The notes below the pieces were generated by a model that was given only the letters and a program-made list of their open reading frames with translations, did not search any database and was not told where the DNA came from. From the IMG/VR virus record IMGVR_UViG_2671180903_000007: 4,588 nt of DNA, one strand, 5' to 3'. Position numbers and translations under genes: made by a program. Positions 3 through 4,588 of the stretch are shown here, in pieces; the first letter of the stretch is position 1; each line of letters begins with the position of its first letter. The DNA is from a virus. Lineage: Duplodnaviria > Heunggongvirae > Uroviricota > Caudoviricetes.

Positions 3-767
3 GTGGTACTGGCAACCCGTAAATACGTGGATGATGAAGTCCTGGAATTAAAGCTGTATGTGGATGACCAGATGAGAAACCACATTGCCGCACAGGATCC
101 TCATACCCAGTATGCGCAGAAACATAATCCGACATTTACCGGAGAACCAAAAGCGCCGACGCCTGCCGCAGGAAATAACACCACGCGGATTGCGACCACT
201 GAGTTTGTTCAGGCCGCTATTACCGCTCTGATTAACGGTGCGCCAGCCACACTGGACACACTGAAAGAAATTGCCGCGGCCATTAACAATGACCCGAAAT
301 TCAGCACCACCATTAACAATGCGCTGTCAGGTAAGCAGCCACTGGATGAGACGCTGACTCATTTGAGCGGAAAGGATGTTGCTGGTCTTCTCGCATACCT
401 TGGTTTGGGAGAAGCGGCAAAACGGAATGTAGGTAACGGGCAAAACCAAATTCCGGATATGGCGGCATTTGCCAGTTCACTTTCATCAACGGGTTTTCAA
501 AAACTCCCTTCAGGTCTGATTATTCAGTGGGGTATTGTCAGTGGAGCATCAAACTATACGGTGACTTACCCGGTAACATTCCCAAATCGTTCACTTGCGC
601 TGTTGGCTGTGCCACATACAACGTCGGTGGCTGGTATATCTGCAATGGGCATAGCGAACTGTTCTGATATCAGCAAATCACAGTTCTATATAATTGTTGG
701 CGGTATATCTCAGGGAGAAATTGTCAAACATGAAAGGTCCTGTTTTTGGGTAGCAATCGGTGTATAG
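3..767 (+). CDS. Phage tail fibre protein, 5'-partial: constant region fused in frame to variable C-terminal cassette Sv1
   Basis: ORF is open from the window edge, so the gene continues upstream. It contains the tail-fibre-type motif TTEFVQAAITALINGAPATLDTLKEIAAAINND. The segment from codons LGLGEAAKRNVG (nt ~399 onward) to the stop at 765-767 is duplicated as a mirror copy on the minus strand at 2860-3222. This is the pattern expected for a constant region joined to an invertible variable tip, as in Mu S or P1 gene 19. Confidence 0.85.
   Translation: MVLATRKYVDDEVLELKLYVDDQMRNHIAAQDPHTQYAQKHNPTFTGEPKAPTPAAGNNTTRIATTEFVQAAITALINGAPATLDTLKEIAAAINNDPKFSTTINNALSGKQPLDETLTHLSGKDVAGLLAYLGLGEAAKRNVGNGQNQIPDMAAFASSLSSTGFQKLPSGLIIQWGIVSGASNYTVTYPVTFPNRSLALLAVPHTTSVAGISAMGIANCSDISKSQFYIIVGGISQGEIVKHERSCFWVAIGV
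388..413 (+). other. Crossover site L for a Gin/Hin/Cin/Pin-type invertase (26 bp, imperfect dyad)
   Basis: TTCTCGCATACC-TT-GGTTTGGGAGAA fits the recalled half-site pattern of gix/hix sites (TTnnnnnAAACC / GGTTTnnnAnAA around a central dinucleotide). Identity with the other two copies begins exactly at the central TT (400-401). The site lies inside the tail fibre reading frame. The consensus is from memory, not from a search. Confidence 0.6.
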
Positions 768-775
768 GTATATCT

Positions 776-1171
776 ATGATTTATTTCTCAAAATCGACTA
801 ATGGTTTTTTCTTTGATGGTATAAACAGCGACATGCCTGCTGACATTGTTGAGATAAGTACAGACTTATACAATGAATTAATTGCCGGACAGCAGGAAGG
901 GGGTAAATTAATCACGTCAGATGAAAATGGTTTACCGGTACTGAAATCTCCGGCGATTGATTATGTCGCACGTGCTGAAAATCAGCGAATGCAGTTACTT
1001 GCTCATGCCGATAATGTCACAGCTGACTGGCGGGTGGAATTAATGCTTGGTGATATCAGCAGTACAGATAAAGAAAAACTATCTGCCTGGATGGATTACA
1101 AAAAAGAAGTAAAAGCCGTCGACACTTCGACGGCTCCTGAGATTAGCTGGCCTGAGTTACCGGAGGCGTAG
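776..1171 (+). CDS. Tail fibre assembly protein (Tfa chaperone, type 1), cognate to Sv1
   Basis: C-terminus VDTSTAPEISWPELPEA matches the conserved Tfa C-terminal motif (P2 G / Mu U / lambda Tfa family). It lies immediately downstream of Sv1 on the same strand. Start is placed at ATG 776, preceded by AGGT 6 nt upstream; the ORF track start at 746 is a TTG inside the fibre gene. Confidence 0.8.
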   Translation: MIYFSKSTNGFFFDGINSDMPADIVEISTDLYNELIAGQQEGGKLITSDENGLPVLKSPAIDYVARAENQRMQLLAHADNVTADWRVELMLGDISSTDKEKLSAWMDYKKEVKAVDTSTAPEISWPELPEA

Positions 1172-1586
1172 GCCATTCAATATCTGGCGCACCGGAAGTA
1201 TCGACCAGCTCCAGTGTGTCCAGATAATCCAGCCACAAATTATATTGCGCCAGTTCCTCACCTTTCAGACGACCAATAGCCGCTTTACCGGGCCATTGCT
1301 TACTGTTCATGTATTCGTTAGCCTGGTTAATTAGTAGCTGTCTTTCTGATTCAGTAATTTCAATAAGCTCTTCATGCGTGGGTGGAGGAATATCTGCCCA
1401 CGCAGGCAGCCCATCATCTCCGGCAATACGGATTTTTCCTTGTGGCGGTTCAGCCATAAACTCACTGATAATATTTTGATTCACCTCCTTTGCATCTGAT
1501 AAATCCCATCCCTCTGATTTATATTTATCAATCATATCCACAGGGAAAAAAGCATTATGCCTTGCGCTATAAACATATTCGTTCAT
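1143..1586 (-). CDS. Tail fibre assembly protein (Tfa chaperone, type 2), cognate to Sv3
   Basis: C-terminus LVDTSGAPDIEWPTPPVTQAS is the same Tfa motif. It is convergent with the type-1 Tfa gene and overlaps it by 29 bp at the 3' ends. Start is placed at ATG 1586; an alternative GTG at 1595 would give a protein beginning MIY, like type 1. Confidence 0.8.
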   Translation of the reverse strand: MNEYVYSARHNAFFPVDMIDKYKSEGWDLSDAKEVNQNIISEFMAEPPQGKIRIAGDDGLPAWADIPPPTHEELIEITESERQLLINQANEYMNSKQWPGKAAIGRLKGEELAQYNLWLDYLDTLELVDTSGAPDIEWPTPPVTQAS

Positions 1587-1634
1587 ATAAATCACCCTGA
1601 ATAAAATTACTCACCAACAGCCCACCAACTGTAA

Positions 1635-1660
1635 TTCATCGATACATTGGTTTGGGAGAA
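1635..1660 (+). other. Crossover site M (third copy, direct orientation relative to L; outer half-site atypical)
   Basis: 1647-1680 is identical to 400-433 (34 bp, starting at the central TT). The outer half TTCATCGATACA (1635-1646) is not a dedicated half-site; all but its last base belongs to the inverted-repeat arm, being the Sv3 C-terminal codons read on the opposite strand. Confidence 0.4.
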
Positions 1661-2020
1661 GCGGCAAAACGGAATGTAGGAACAGGGGAAAATCAGATAC
1701 CGGATATGGCTTCTTTTGCCAGTGGTGATGGATGGATGAAATTACCCAACGGTAAAATCCTGCAATATGGTCGAGGTGCGGTTACGCCGACATTATCGAC
1801 GCAAACAATGAGAATTACATTCAGCATCCCTTTTCCTAAAAAAGTGGACTGCGCCATGCTTACCCATTCTGGTGATGGTGGTGCGCCTTTAGGCGCTGGA
1901 CGGGGATTCGTGATGACTGCAGAAGGTCCAACACTAACCGGTTTTAATTCCGCTTACAGAACTGCATCAACCAGTTCCACAGTATCGATGAATTACAGTT
2001 GGTGGGCTGTTGGTGAGTAA
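1652..2020 (+). CDS. Silent alternative tail-fibre C-terminal cassette Sv3 (no start of its own)
   Basis: Begins with the same GEAAKRNVG crossover-encoded peptide as Sv1 and then diverges (GTGENQIPDMASFAS vs GNGQNQIPDMAAFAS) into an unrelated ~110-aa tip. It is in the same frame relative to the crossover centre as Sv1. The M in the ORF track is a TTG codon inside the crossover sequence. It is followed on the same strand by Tfa type 2. Confidence 0.6.
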   Translation: MGEAAKRNVGTGENQIPDMASFASGDGWMKLPNGKILQYGRGAVTPTLSTQTMRITFSIPFPKKVDCAMLTHSGDGGAPLGAGRGFVMTAEGPTLTGFNSAYRTASTSSTVSMNYSWWAVGE

Positions 2021-2040
2021 TTTTATTCAGGGTGATTTAT

Positions 2041-2484
2041 ATGAACGAATATGTTTATAGCGCAAGGCATAATGCTTTTTTCCCTGTGGATATGATTGAT
2101 AAATATAAATCAGAGGGATGGGATTTATCAGATGCAAAGGAGGTGAATCAAAATATTATCAGTGAGTTTATGGCTGAACCGCCACAAGGAAAAATCCGTA
2201 TTGCCGGAGATGATGGGCTGCCTGCGTGGGCAGATATTCCTCCACCCACGCATGAAGAGCTTATTGAAATTACTGAATCAGAAAGACAGCTACTAATTAA
2301 CCAGGCTAACGAATACATGAACAGTAAGCAATGGCCCGGTAAAGCGGCTATTGGTCGTCTGAAAGGTGAGGAACTGGCGCAATATAATTTGTGGCTGGAT
2401 TATCTGGACACACTGGAGCTGGTCGATACTTCCGGTGCGCCAGATATTGAATGGCCTACGCCTCCGGTAACTCAGGCCAGCTAA
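2041..2484 (+). CDS. Tail fibre assembly protein type 2, second copy (identical to 1143-1586)
   Basis: Identical 150-aa translation in the ORF track. ATG 2041 is preceded by AGGGTGA; an alternative GTG lies at 2032. It sits directly downstream of Sv3 on the same strand. Confidence 0.8.
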   Translation: MNEYVYSARHNAFFPVDMIDKYKSEGWDLSDAKEVNQNIISEFMAEPPQGKIRIAGDDGLPAWADIPPPTHEELIEITESERQLLINQANEYMNSKQWPGKAAIGRLKGEELAQYNLWLDYLDTLELVDTSGAPDIEWPTPPVTQAS

Positions 2485-2851
2485 TCTCAGGAGCCGTCGA
2501 AGTGTCGACGGCTTTTACTTCTTTTTTGTAATCCATCCAGGCAGATAGTTTTTCTTTATCTGTACTGCTGATATCACCAAGCATTAATTCCACCCGCCAG
2601 TCAGCTGTGACATTATCGGCATGAGCAAGTAACTGCATTCGCTGATTTTCAGCACGTGCGACATAATCAATCGCCGGAGATTTCAGTACCGGTAAACCAT
2701 TTTCATCTGACGTGATTAATTTACCCCCTTCCTGCTGTCCGGCAATTAATTCATTGTATAAGTCTGTACTTATCTCAACAATGTCAGCAGGCATGTCGCT
2801 GTTTATACCATCAAAGAAAAAACCATTAGTCGATTTTGAGAAATAAATCAT
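2456..2851 (-). CDS. Tail fibre assembly protein type 1, second copy (identical to 776-1171)
   Basis: Identical 141-aa translation in the ORF track. Mirror of 776-1171 under p to 3627-p. Confidence 0.8.
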   Translation of the reverse strand: MIYFSKSTNGFFFDGINSDMPADIVEISTDLYNELIAGQQEGGKLITSDENGLPVLKSPAIDYVARAENQRMQLLAHADNVTADWRVELMLGDISSTDKEKLSAWMDYKKEVKAVDTSTAPEISWPELPEA

Positions 2852-2859
2852 AGATATAC

Positions 2860-3222
2860 CTATACACCGATTGCTACCCAAAAACAGGACCTTTCATGTT
2901 TGACAATTTCTCCCTGAGATATACCGCCAACAATTATATAGAACTGTGATTTGCTGATATCAGAACAGTTCGCTATGCCCATTGCAGATATACCAGCCAC
3001 CGACGTTGTATGTGGCACAGCCAACAGCGCAAGTGAACGATTTGGGAATGTTACCGGGTAAGTCACCGTATAGTTTGATGCTCCACTGACAATACCCCAC
3101 TGAATAATCAGACCTGAAGGGAGTTTTTGAAAACCCGTTGATGAAAGTGAACTGGCAAATGCCGCCATATCCGGAATTTGGTTTTGCCCGTTACCTACAT
3201 TCCGTTTTGCCGCTTCTCCCAA
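2860..3222 (-). CDS. Silent inverted copy of the Sv1 tail-fibre C-terminal cassette
   Basis: 120-aa translation identical to the C-terminal 120 aa of the 3-767 ORF. No constant region is upstream of it on the minus strand; the apparent start is TTG inside the crossover sequence. Confidence 0.6.
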   Translation of the reverse strand: MGEAAKRNVGNGQNQIPDMAAFASSLSSTGFQKLPSGLIIQWGIVSGASNYTVTYPVTFPNRSLALLAVPHTTSVAGISAMGIANCSDISKSQFYIIVGGISQGEIVKHERSCFWVAIGV

Positions 3223-3239
3223 ACCAACGTTTTATGGAA
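3214..3239 (-). other. Crossover site R (inverted relative to L)
   Basis: Plus strand reads TTCTCCCAAACC-AA-CGTTTTATGGAA. Read on the minus strand it is TTCCATAAAACG-TT-GGTTTGGGAGAA, with the same centre and inner half as L and an outer half that differs from L. Inverted-repeat identity ends exactly at the central dinucleotide (3226-3227). Confidence 0.6.
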
Positions 3240-3328
3240 TCGGTTAAATATGATGTTGAAAGAAGGGAATGTCCTAGTATTGATTGTTAGATAAAAATGG
3301 AAAGTGCTGATTGTAACGGTATATTTTA

Positions 3329-3364
3329 AGATGGTAACACCAAATGGTGCTACCATCTTTATTA
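3329..3364. terminator. Candidate intrinsic terminator hairpin
   Basis: AGATGGTAACACC-AAAT-GGTGCTACCATCT forms a 13-bp stem with one mismatch and a 4-nt loop, followed on the plus strand by TTTATTAG. It lies just below the stop of the minus-strand 105-aa ORF (3366-3368) and downstream of the fibre cassette on the plus strand, so it could act in either direction. Confidence 0.4.
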
Positions 3365-3365
3365 G

Positions 3366-3683
3366 TTATCTGTTCCTTCTGAGGATTCCGCTACTCCCTT
3401 GTGTTGTAGGGTTTAATTTTTTCCAATAATGATAACCTTGTGATGTAATCCTTAGAGAGGCAGTATCTACACTCCATCCATCATTACTTTCAGGAGAACC
3501 ATCGAAGATTACCTTTCCTGTAAGATACCCATCGTCATGCAGAAAGGCGATATATCCATAAACTTCTTTTAAATCACCAATTTCATTGACTAGGCGTTCC
3601 CACGCTTGAACAGTGATTCTCTCTGGATAGGCTTCGACAAAATATTTCAGTGTGGTAGTTTTTTTATTGATATCGATGTTCAT
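3366..3683 (-). CDS. Hypothetical protein, 105 aa, solitary gene in an AT-rich island (possible moron)
   Basis: ATG at 3683-3681 with AGGA about 8 nt upstream on the minus strand. Hand-counted GC is about 32-38% here versus about 60% in a hand-counted stretch of the invertase gene. I cannot assign it to a family by eye. Confidence 0.65.
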   Translation of the reverse strand: MNIDINKKTTTLKYFVEAYPERITVQAWERLVNEIGDLKEVYGYIAFLHDDGYLTGKVIFDGSPESNDGWSVDTASLRITSQGYHYWKKLNPTTQGSSGILRRNR

Positions 3684-3881
3684 CAGATTTTCCTTTTATT
3701 GAGGTCAACCTATCTTACCATACTTAATTGTTTCACATGGGAATGCTAAGTGGGCTATGTATCCACTATCAGTAAATATTCTTATCCAGCAAGATTACTG
3801 TAACTGAGAGCCCCATAGCCTTGTCCGCTTGTACATATATAGATAATTCTGTGTCATTATTCTGTTTTTATAGGGATTTTT
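3684..3881. promoter_or_regulatory. Divergent AT-rich intergenic region, presumed to hold promoters for the 105-aa ORF and the invertase
   Basis: 198-bp non-coding gap between divergently oriented start codons. A possible -10 GATAAT at 3842-3847 and -35-like TTGTCC at 3821-3826 have suboptimal spacing. An AGGGA ribosome-binding site lies 9 nt before ATG 3882. Promoter positions are not established. Confidence 0.3.
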
Positions 3882-4475
3882 ATGCGTATAGGTTATGTTC
3901 GTGTATCAACAAATGACCAGAACACGGAATTGCAGCGTAACGCGCTCGAGTGCGCAGGATGTGAGCTGATTTTTGAGGATAAAATCAGCGGCACGAAGTC
4001 CGACCGACCGGGACTGAAAAAACTGCTCAGAACATTATCAGCAGGTGACACTCTGGTAGTCTGGAAGCTGGACCGGCTGGGGCGTAGTATGCGGCATCTG
4101 GTCATTCTGGTTGAGGAGCTGCGCGAACGCGGCGTTAATTTTCGCAGCCTGACAGATGCTATTGATACCAGCACGCCGATGGGGCGTTTTTTCTTTCATG
4201 TGATGGGTGCTCTGGCTGAAATGGAGCGAGAACTCATTGTCGAGCGGACACGCGCCGGACTGGAAGCGGCCAGAGCCAAAGGGCGTATTGGTGGCAGACG
4301 TCCGAAGCTCACCGCGAGTGAGTGGGAACAGGCAGGACGGTTGCTGGCTGCGGGTGAATCACGTCAACGCGTGGCGCTGATTTTTGATATTGGCCTGTCC
4401 ACGCTCTATAAAAAATTCCCCTCATCAGCGGCAAAGAATAAATTGTGTCATCCCTTAGCCAACCGGGACAAATAG
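3882..4475 (+). CDS. Serine DNA invertase, Gin/Pin/Cin/Hin family (small serine recombinase)
   Basis: N-terminus MRIGYVRVSTNDQNTELQRNAL with the catalytic Ser at codon 9 (3906-3908). Central motifs DTLVVWKLDRLGRS and MGRFFFHVMGALAEMERELI, and a C-terminal helix-turn-helix region (GLSTLYKK), are near-identical to Gin of Mu and Pin of e14 as I recall them. Confidence 0.95.
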   Translation: MRIGYVRVSTNDQNTELQRNALECAGCELIFEDKISGTKSDRPGLKKLLRTLSAGDTLVVWKLDRLGRSMRHLVILVEELRERGVNFRSLTDAIDTSTPMGRFFFHVMGALAEMERELIVERTRAGLEAARAKGRIGGRRPKLTASEWEQAGRLLAAGESRQRVALIFDIGLSTLYKKFPSSAAKNKLCHPLANRDK

Positions 4476-4534
4476 CCTGACATCTCCGGCACAACTGAAA
4501 ATATCACTCACCCATTAACCACGGAGTTAAACGG

Positions 4535-4588
4535 ATGAGTGACTATCATCACGGCGTGCAGGTGCTGGAGATTAACGACGGCACCCGC
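4535..4588 (+). CDS. Tail sheath protein (P2 FI-like), 3'-partial, first 18 codons
   Basis: MSDYHHGVQVLEINDGTR closely matches my recollection of the N-terminus of the P2 FI major tail sheath protein. GGAG lies 9 nt upstream of ATG 4535. The ORF runs off the window end. Confidence 0.6.
   Translation, partial: MSDYHHGVQVLEINDGTR

Follow-up and report, generated by a model that had tools for sequence, protein, structure and literature searches.

A tail-fibre switch with a third crossover site

The window, by which we mean the whole 4,588-nt stretch of DNA analysed here, very probably represents the host-range switch in the tail fibre of a P2-like E. coli prophage, driven by a Gin/Pin-family invertase, in which a third crossover site, M, marks the junction of a partial duplication. 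It begins midway through a tail-fibre gene and ends just after the start of a tail sheath gene, of which it includes the first codons. A normal locus of this kind has two sites and two tips, and the segment order found here is Sc-L-[Sv1 U1 U3' truncated-Sv3']-M-[Sv3 U3 U1' Sv1']-R (Table 1). The in-frame exchange of tips is that of an ordinary Gin/Pin-type DNA-inversion switch, and the third site is its single oddity. In keeping with a switch of the Gin/Cin/Pin/Hin/Min type, the crossover lies in the tail-fibre gene, the C-termini alternate in frame and each comes with its cognate chaperone gene.

In closely related E. coli chromosomes, the same stretch is part of a P2-like prophage with the gene order baseplate J and I, tail fibre, two chaperones, invertase, sheath and tube. 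Since the sheath gene starts at position 4536, the switch has the tail-fibre genes on one side and this gene on the other. The constant part of the tail-fibre gene, Sc, is 100% identical to that of loci L004-L011, in which full-length genes of 397 or 399 amino acids are called that combine the Phage_tail_fib and Gp53-like_C domains.

Table 1. Features of the window, in order of their first position
Feature	Position	Strand	Basis
Sc, constant part of P2 H-like tail-fibre gene; 5' end outside the window	3..399	+	open frame
Site L, 26 bp, TTCTCGCATACC TT GGTTTGGGAGAA, core TT 400-401	388..413	+	common to ten loci with identical invertase
34-bp block: core 2 bp, inner half-site 12 bp, 20 bp cassette homology (AAKRNVG)	400..433	+	three exact copies
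Perfect inverted repeat, 1246 nt, left arm	400..1645	.	self-comparison
Sv1 tip cassette, now fused to Sc, Gp53-like_C	402..767	+	open frame, Pfam
Tip start, diverged but homologous, 33/43 identical to 1681-1723	434..476	+	alignment
U1, tail-fibre assembly chaperone of Sv1	776..1171	+	Pfam Caudo_TAP, E 1.8e-24
U3 copy, chaperone of Sv3, inverted	1143..1586	-	identical to 2041-2484; Caudo_TAP, E 1.8e-30
Sv3 remnant, truncated 3' end: stop and last 12 codons	1607..1645	-	reverse complement of 1982-2020
Site M, hybrid 26-mer, TTCATCGATACA TT GGTTTGGGAGAA, core 1647-1648	1635..1660	+	direct orientation relative to L
Sv3 tip cassette, silent here	1649..2020	+	open frame, Pfam
Parent pseudo-site Q, Sv3 3' end, TTCATCGATACT GT GGAACTGGTTGA	1967..1992	-	left half alone half-site-like
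Perfect inverted repeat, 1246 nt, right arm	1982..3227	.	self-comparison
U3 chaperone gene	2041..2484	+	open frame, Pfam
U1 copy	2456..2851	-	perfect inverted repeat of 776-1171
Sv1 copy, silent	2860..3225	-	perfect inverted repeat of 402-767
Site R, minus-strand reading TTCCATAAAACG TT GGTTTGGGAGAA, core 3226-3227	3214..3239	-	inverted relative to L and M
Gin/Pin-family serine DNA invertase, 197 aa, Ser9 present	3882..4475	+	Resolvase and HTH_7
Candidate Fis-dependent enhancer region, two G-N13-C 15-mers (3903-3917, 3952-3966)	3903..3966	+	inferred from hin/gin enhancer positions
Tail sheath gene start, P2 FI-like	4536..4588	+	annotation "phage tail sheath protein" in L001, L002

The invertase and a candidate enhancer

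The invertase matches the Pfam domains PF00239 (E 2.9e-52) and PF02796 (E 1.1e-12), and 143 of 184 aligned residues (78%) are identical to Gin of phage Mu (PDB 3UJ3, E 8.5e-94). It has the resolvase domain, the C-terminal HTH and the catalytic Ser9 of a small serine recombinase; this serine, located within the motif RVSTNDQ, corresponds to the catalytic residue of Gin (PMC3575834). By analogy to its family, the enzyme would bind 26-bp sites in which two imperfect half-sites of 12 bp flank a TT core, cut both strands at this core with a 2-nt stagger and then rotate one half of the synapse. Such a rotation would flip the DNA between two inverted sites.

Switches of this kind usually have a Fis-dependent recombinational enhancer within the 5' portion of the invertase gene, and its location in hin and gin was reportedly determined in 1985 by Kahmann and by Johnson and Simon (both cited in PMC3798978). 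By the enhancer positions in these two genes, the two 15-mers listed in Table 1 are candidate Fis sites. Synonymous diversity of the invertase gene is 0.18-0.26 over codons 1-20, 0.20-0.36 up to codon 115 and 0.36-0.52 beyond, with no sharp dip.

Crossover sites and the point of exchange

Recombination at 26-bp sites has been stated for hix (PMC3798978), and the sites of the window resemble the 26-bp crossover sites tabulated for the prophages of E. coli EC958 (PMC4134206). Each is built of two imperfect half-sites of 12 bp, inverted to one another, that flank a non-palindromic core of 2 bp. L and R lie in opposite orientation, with R 643 bp upstream of the invertase start, and the same layout of inverted sites beside the invertase is present in L001-L012. 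The sequences of L and R are identical across ten loci that encode a sequence-identical invertase, and all ten are two-site loci. A TT core is present in 126 of 128 sites from IMG/VR loci with related invertases (n = 79), which together contain 30 distinct half-sites. Where both ends were retrieved, these loci mostly have two sites, and a genuine three-site module was found in none of the 79.

A block of 34 bp (TTGGTTTGGGAGAAGCGGCAAAACGGAATGTAGG) occurs exactly three times in the window, at 400-433 (+), 1647-1680 (+) and 3194-3227 (–). Three copies of a 34-mer in 4.6 kb are not due to chance; they reflect repeat homology. The first-pass annotation of this DNA, which described a crossover sequence at 388-480 inside the tail-fibre reading frame, had regarded this block as the crossover sequence. 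That it is common to all three copies and encodes GLGEAAKRNVG (C|TT GGT TTG GGA GAA GCG GCA AAA CGG AAT GTA GG) is confirmed; taken in the tail-fibre frame, which is that of base 3, the block gives (L)GLGEAAKRNV followed by the first two bases of a codon for G. Its role is a different matter, because in related prophages with the same or a closely related invertase other cassette families diverge directly past the inner half-site of 12 bp (GGTTTGGGAGAA). What functions as the unit of crossover is thus the 26-bp site at 388-413, and positions 414-433 represent homology between cassettes of one family. Of the proposed range, the start at 388 stands as the first base of this site, but homology already stops at 476.

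Among the ten loci with identical and the 79 loci with related invertases, at least six unrelated cassette starts follow the site (GCGGCAAAACGG.., GGCTCTGCATTACC.., GGTGCTCCAGC.., ACGATAAATC.., TTATCTCTGG.. and GCCAGATAT..). In the isomer-like pair L018/L025, a variant of the inner half-site (..GAG) moves together with its cassette. Since cassettes are unrelated after the common 14 bp (core plus inner half) and the L018/L025 variant travels with its cassette, exchange takes place in or just to the right of the core. This fits the central TT dinucleotide that had been proposed as exchange point, and neither a frame shift nor any sign of exchange elsewhere was found. The system-wide boundary of the mosaic is accordingly 413/414, directly after the E of GLGE, and not, as had been suggested, past another ~45 diverged bp. 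The outer half-sites indeed differ between L, M and R, but the asymmetry of the sites does not follow from them: in the Hin/Gin family, the non-palindromic core dinucleotide (TT/AA) sets the orientation of a site, not the outer half-sites.

Tip cassettes and their reading frame

L is located within the tail-fibre gene, and the TT core fills positions 2 and 3 of a Leu codon, followed by the inner half-site GGT TTG GGA GAA, which encodes GLGE. Any cassette that carries the inner half-site in this register joins the constant part in frame and brings its own chaperone gene behind it. The earlier claim that the frame is kept holds for all three cassettes, whose lengths of 369, 375 and 369 nt are divisible by three. 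Translated from the base before the core, each has one terminal stop, and Sc (3-399) joined to any of them at the core gives one open frame to the natural stop.

Past the 34-bp block, the two tips were expected to be homologous but diverged, which is the case for 33 of 43 positions (434-476 vs 1681-1723, GNGQNQIPDMAAFAS vs GTGENQIPDMASFAS). In the following 84 nt, identity of Sv1 and Sv3 drops to 26/84 in an ungapped comparison. The tips were then said to become unrelated. DNA similarity is lost, yet both proteins match the whole Pfam domain Gp53-like_C (E 2e-14 and 2.3e-13) and share 51% identity over their first 69 residues (BLASTP). Judged by these matches, the tips are homologous members of one Pfam family. 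Single-sequence AlphaFold2 models of the two reached a mean pLDDT of 36 and 45 and are unusable.

Sv1, U1 and U3 are present twice each, whereas Sv3 is present once in full and once as a 39-nt remnant, beyond which the Sv3 of the parent locus continues for another 335 nt. The complete Sv3 at 1649-2020 is silent because of an in-frame stop at 1598-1600, located 15 codons upstream of the ATT codon of M (1646-1648). According to their gene tables, the relatives ST2747 and 723_010814 have a longer segment in which another tip-plus-chaperone pair replaces Sv1/U1, with no extra cassette.

Both orientations occur in related prophages

Orientation states were taken from explicit loci. Among near-identical prophages, Sc is joined to Sv3 in L001, L003, L005, L007 and L009 and to Sv1 in L002, L006, L008 and L012. 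Full-length in-frame fusions of 399 and 397 amino acids are called in L007 and L008, respectively. Inversion thus happens in nature in this prophage lineage; the observation applies to the lineage, not to the source strain of the window. PGAP breaks the Sc-Sv3 isomer into a pseudogene and a separate protein. Counts of the isomers by 161-nt Sc-Sv1 and Sc-Sv3 junction queries were dropped because they did not tell the two states apart, with 65% of the query length in common and 77% likeness in the remainder.

Site M and the duplication

Base for base, the window is the same as the two-site locus found in strain PK5074 (NZ_CP072802.1) except for 1247 additional bases, by which it also exceeds its other relatives in length. 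Its four unique parts, 1-399 (Sc), 402-1645, 1649-1981 and 3228-4588, are 100% identical to this locus. Starting in Sc, the window follows PK5074 up to 335 nt before R; then comes a single A at position 1646, and after it the whole segment in flipped orientation together with the right flank. The two arms of the resulting perfect inverted repeat are separated by 336 nt (1646-1981).

The outer half of M is the antisense strand of Sv3 codons near the stop, and between 1645 and 1647, right beside the core, Sv3 antisense gives way to the sequence of a site (...CATCGATACATTGGTTTGG...). On this sequence comparison, M is the junction of a 1247-bp partial duplication, at which the antisense 3' end of Sv3 meets the core of a genuine site. 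The candidate parents all differ from the A at 1646, Sv3 having T, L having C and R having G, and none of 20 Sv3 alleles provides an A at this position. The junction (AATTCATCGATACNTTGGTTTGGGAGAAGC) had no match in a one-genome-per-species collection, in IMG/VR or in metagenome contigs. It is also absent from 5426 complete E. coli genomes, in which a 161-nt query was covered to at most 64%. Contigs encoding the identical invertase contained two-site loci only, with no third site.

The Sv3 sequence that contributed the outer half of M is the pseudo-site Q. The pattern TTCNNNNAWAC, which represents the invariant half-site columns, is lenient; its 7 matches, compared with 1.29 expected, comprise six half-sites and Q. 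By a hand count, the outer half of Q agrees with the inner half at 7/12 positions, equal to the working R site. On a weight matrix of the family, built from 30 independent half-sites, Q ranks 155th of 6660 12-mers of the parent locus (top 2.3%). We therefore downgraded the pseudo-site argument and regard the resemblance of Q to a half-site as weak. M has the form expected of a quasi-site product, a hybrid site with its switch point at the core dinucleotide. A quasi-site itself should resemble a genuine site and share its central dinucleotide, and here Q falls short, both by its rank and by a GT core compared with TT at genuine sites.

Isomers expected from three sites

We simulated recombination at the site cores. 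Four inversion isomers can be reached, of which three express Sv1 and one expresses Sv3, and all fusions are in frame. Sc carries Sv1 in the state of the window, after LxR and after MxR, and it carries Sv3 after LxR followed by LxM. L and M are direct repeats, so that LxM in the state of the window would be a deletion; the simulated product is a canonical locus of 3341 bp with 7 mismatches to strain 5444. Expression of Sv3 is reached solely by LxR then LxM, or by this deletion. The first-pass annotation had supposed that any exchange joins Sc to a new tip. Instead, there are two distinct tips, Sv1 being present twice, and both LxR and MxR leave Sc fused to Sv1.

A single MxR inversion separates the window from a plain tandem duplication of 400-1646, and we expect that the two 1246-nt arms, if they recombined by homology, would yield what LxR yields. 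A multiple-inversion module combines three or more functional sites with at least three different gene ends; here, three sites serve two tips. If M is real, the phage population would be biased to one tip, with Sv1 in 3/4 of the isomers.

Origin of site M

Our preferred explanation, held tentatively and at somewhat less than an even chance, is that M is real and was made by the invertase. The enzyme may have cut a genuine site together with the weak pseudo-site Q in Sv3, either between sister copies in opposite orientation states or by a QxR inversion followed by homologous exchange. Cutting at a genuine site predicts a switch at the core edge, which is where it is found (1645-1647). The case for Q as the partner chosen by the enzyme is weak. 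Taken one step further, M could be a newborn crossover site, at which recombination between a pseudo-site and a genuine site produced the partial duplication and with it a three-site, four-isomer module; this fuller reading strikes us as doubtful. If true, the window would have caught in nature the way in which multi-site modules such as p15B Min and the three-repeat module of EPEC arise from simple switches, and it would be a rare natural case of quasi-site use with a mismatched core by a Gin-family enzyme.

It may equally be that the third copy arose during assembly, a prospect we also hold at a little under one half: from a culture with both orientations of a normal two-site segment, the assembler or a merge of alternative contigs would have made a chimeric partial duplication, and the real locus would be the canonical one of 3341 bp. 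A strain with the canonical locus matches all parts of the window at 100% identity, the junction was seen in none of the collections searched, and the stray A1646 lies exactly at the join. Forde et al. cautioned that, in invertible tail-fibre regions, contigs with the alternative allele lead to artefactual duplications (PMC4134206). Strain MLI108K2 has blended Sv1/Sv3 sequence beside the sites and frameshifted genes at the same locus, and the IMG/VR contigs L027, L045, L049 and L068 contain perfect inverted duplications around such segments. In these artefact-like contigs, however, the joins are at complete genuine sites with genuine flanks, whereas the window joins the interior of Sv3 to a core, a combination present in neither orientation isomer. 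Its parts are free of consensus noise, all being identical to PK5074, and short-read graphs presumably could not hold a perfect 1246-nt repeat twice per contig. By our own estimate, a random chimeric join would fall within 1 nt of a crossover core in about 1 of 1000 cases. A real duplication made without the invertase seems rather improbable to us. It would be a RecA-independent tandem duplication of 400-1646 at microhomology, followed by MxR inversion, and the window is indeed exactly one such inversion from a plain 1247-bp tandem duplication. The two ends share microhomology (ATAC..TGG; ATACTGTGG vs ATACCTTGG, 7/9 bases), and the weak likeness of Q to a site, with its mismatched core, also suits this route. 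On the other hand, it makes the position of the junction at a crossover core a coincidence and still requires a base change from C or T to A at 1646. We consider it very improbable that the locus is, as the first-pass annotation had it, a purpose-built three-cassette shufflon with a different tip at each site. Three in-frame copies of the site are present, and a P2-like prophage of EPEC E2348/69 has three-repeat modules with three alternative C-termini (PMC4272514). Yet the window has two distinct tips, with perfect duplicates of Sv1 and of both chaperone genes, and M lies in direct orientation to L; the two-site layout of all ten loci with the identical invertase and the lack of a genuine three-site module among the 79 related loci argue in the same direction.

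Comparison with known systems

The locus is similar to the G segment of phage Mu with Gin and gix in its constant tail-fibre part, its in-frame site and its two mirror-image pairs of tip and chaperone. Also as in Mu, the invertase gene, whose product is closely related to Gin, adjoins the right site, and the inverted repeats reach past the 26-bp site; those of Mu are 34 bp long. It differs from Mu in the P2-like host phage, the position between tail-fibre genes and sheath gene, the length of the segment (1.6 kb here, 3 kb in Mu), the Gp53-like_C tips and the addition of a third, hybrid site with a 1.25-kb duplication. The C segment of P1 with Cin and cix belongs to the same family of switches. 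Cin reportedly recombines genuine sites with quasi-sites (Iida and Hiestand-Nauer 1986 and 1987, cited in PMC4134206), the kind of event that we favour for the origin of M, and the later paper, judging by its title, is said to address the role of the central dinucleotide in the choice of quasi-sites. In the window, the cores of Q and of the genuine sites do not agree (GT vs TT), and a base beside the core is novel.

More than two crossover sites, with several isomers from one constant gene part, are shared with Min of p15B and the R64 shufflon. In p15B, Min works on six sites with many different cassettes, and recombination in the R64 shufflon is carried out by Rci, a tyrosine recombinase. To our knowledge, neither of these is built from a perfect duplication.

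The E. coli prophage segments of EC958, EPEC E2348/69 and e14 (with Pin) resemble the window in the in-frame switching of C-termini, and both orientations coexist in cultures. Phi1, Phi2 and Phi4 of EC958 have 26-bp sites, and the inner half of the GGTTT(A/G)GGAGAA type corresponds to that of Phi2 (PMC4134206). The module of EPEC E2348/69 has three repeats and four variants, the same number of isomers as simulated here (PMC4272514). Its three C-termini are all different, whereas the window has two, one of them duplicated, and a third site that is a duplication junction. In-frame tail-fibre crossover by invertases has "long been recognised", as stated with reference to Sandmeier 1994 (PMC4134206). 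The crossover within the tail-fibre gene is therefore a known mechanism, and the hybrid site a modest curiosity.

For annotation, the analysis is of use in defining the true site as 26 bp and in pointing out that cultures of mixed orientation corrupt assemblies at this locus. The hybrid site, if real, would illustrate how additional crossover sites and duplicate cassettes come about, from which host-range switches with many cassettes can be built. Prophage inversions can serve host defence as well, as reported for PinQ and e14 (PMC12529663), so that the state of the switch may matter beyond phage host range.

An AT-rich ORF between crossover site R and the invertase gene

A 105-aa ORF next to the invertase gene keeps its presence and position in all 10 related loci compared. 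Its GC content is 35-38% versus 52-59% for the flanking genes, and because of this low GC content the ORF looks like a moron-type insert by its composition. In P2, a lysogenic-conversion gene occupies the equivalent position. Searches of Pfam, PHROG, PADLOC and NCBIfam returned no match to the ORF, and the sole match in the PDB, 2pjd_A, was non-significant (E 0.42). The adjacent hairpin has a near-perfect 15-bp stem and a 2-nt loop; it was not called by a simple terminator scan.

The chaperone gene U1 contains, near its 3′ end, the GC-rich palindrome AGCCGTCGA-CACT-TCGACGGCT, a possible two-way terminator within the invertible segment.

Coordinates of features in the window and in related loci
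Feature	Locus	Coordinates	Strand	Location
105-aa ORF	window	3366-3683	-	between site R and invertase gene, inside AT-rich stretch 3150-3900
Hairpin AAGATGGTAACACCA / TGGTGCTACCATCTT	window	3328-3359		directly downstream of 105-aa ORF, between ORF and site R
GC-rich palindrome	window	1114-1135 and 2492-2513		copy at 1114-1135 directly upstream of U1/U3 overlap
29-bp overlap of convergent U1 and U3	window	1143-1171
Intact 399-aa tail-fibre gene	L001 (NZ_CP103515.1)	1074-2273
Inverted duplication	L027	1-7243		at invertible segment
Inverted duplication	L049	1-2964		at invertible segment
Inverted duplication	L045	1-52		at invertible segment
Inverted duplication	L068	around 38		at invertible segment

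Variation, assembly and annotation of related loci

The inner half-sites are polymorphic among related prophages, with GGTTTAGGAGAA, GGTTTGAGAGAA, ..GAG and ..GAT represented (L018 and L025 are among these loci). In some prophages the inner halves differ between the two ends of the same locus, so natural loci do not need two perfectly identical inner halves.

Perfect inverted duplications occur at the invertible segment of four IMG/VR contigs whose invertases are related; the duplicated arms of L027 measure 1330-1371 nt and include the invertase gene. The duplications join at complete, genuine sites in the three contigs examined (L027, L045 and L068). All four could be either assembly artefacts or real amplifications.

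In strain MLI108K2 (NZ_CP117001.1; loci L004 and L094), Sv1 and Sv3 sequence is blended beside the crossover sites, for example in GGAACGGGGAAAACCAAA; the chaperone genes are frameshifted and the prophage locus is 22 bp below normal length. The locus of its sister isolate, MLI108K1, is clean. The MLI108K2 locus looks like a consensus from a mixed-orientation culture.

Annotation of the tail-fibre gene varies with orientation (L001, L092 and L093). In Sc-Sv3 genomes, RefSeq breaks the intact gene in two: a “gp53-like domain-containing protein” is annotated separately from a pseudogene labelled “phage tail protein, incomplete, missing C-terminus”. In the Sc-Sv1 orientation, it is annotated as a single gene. 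Another gene caller recovered the full 399-aa ORF in the related locus L007.
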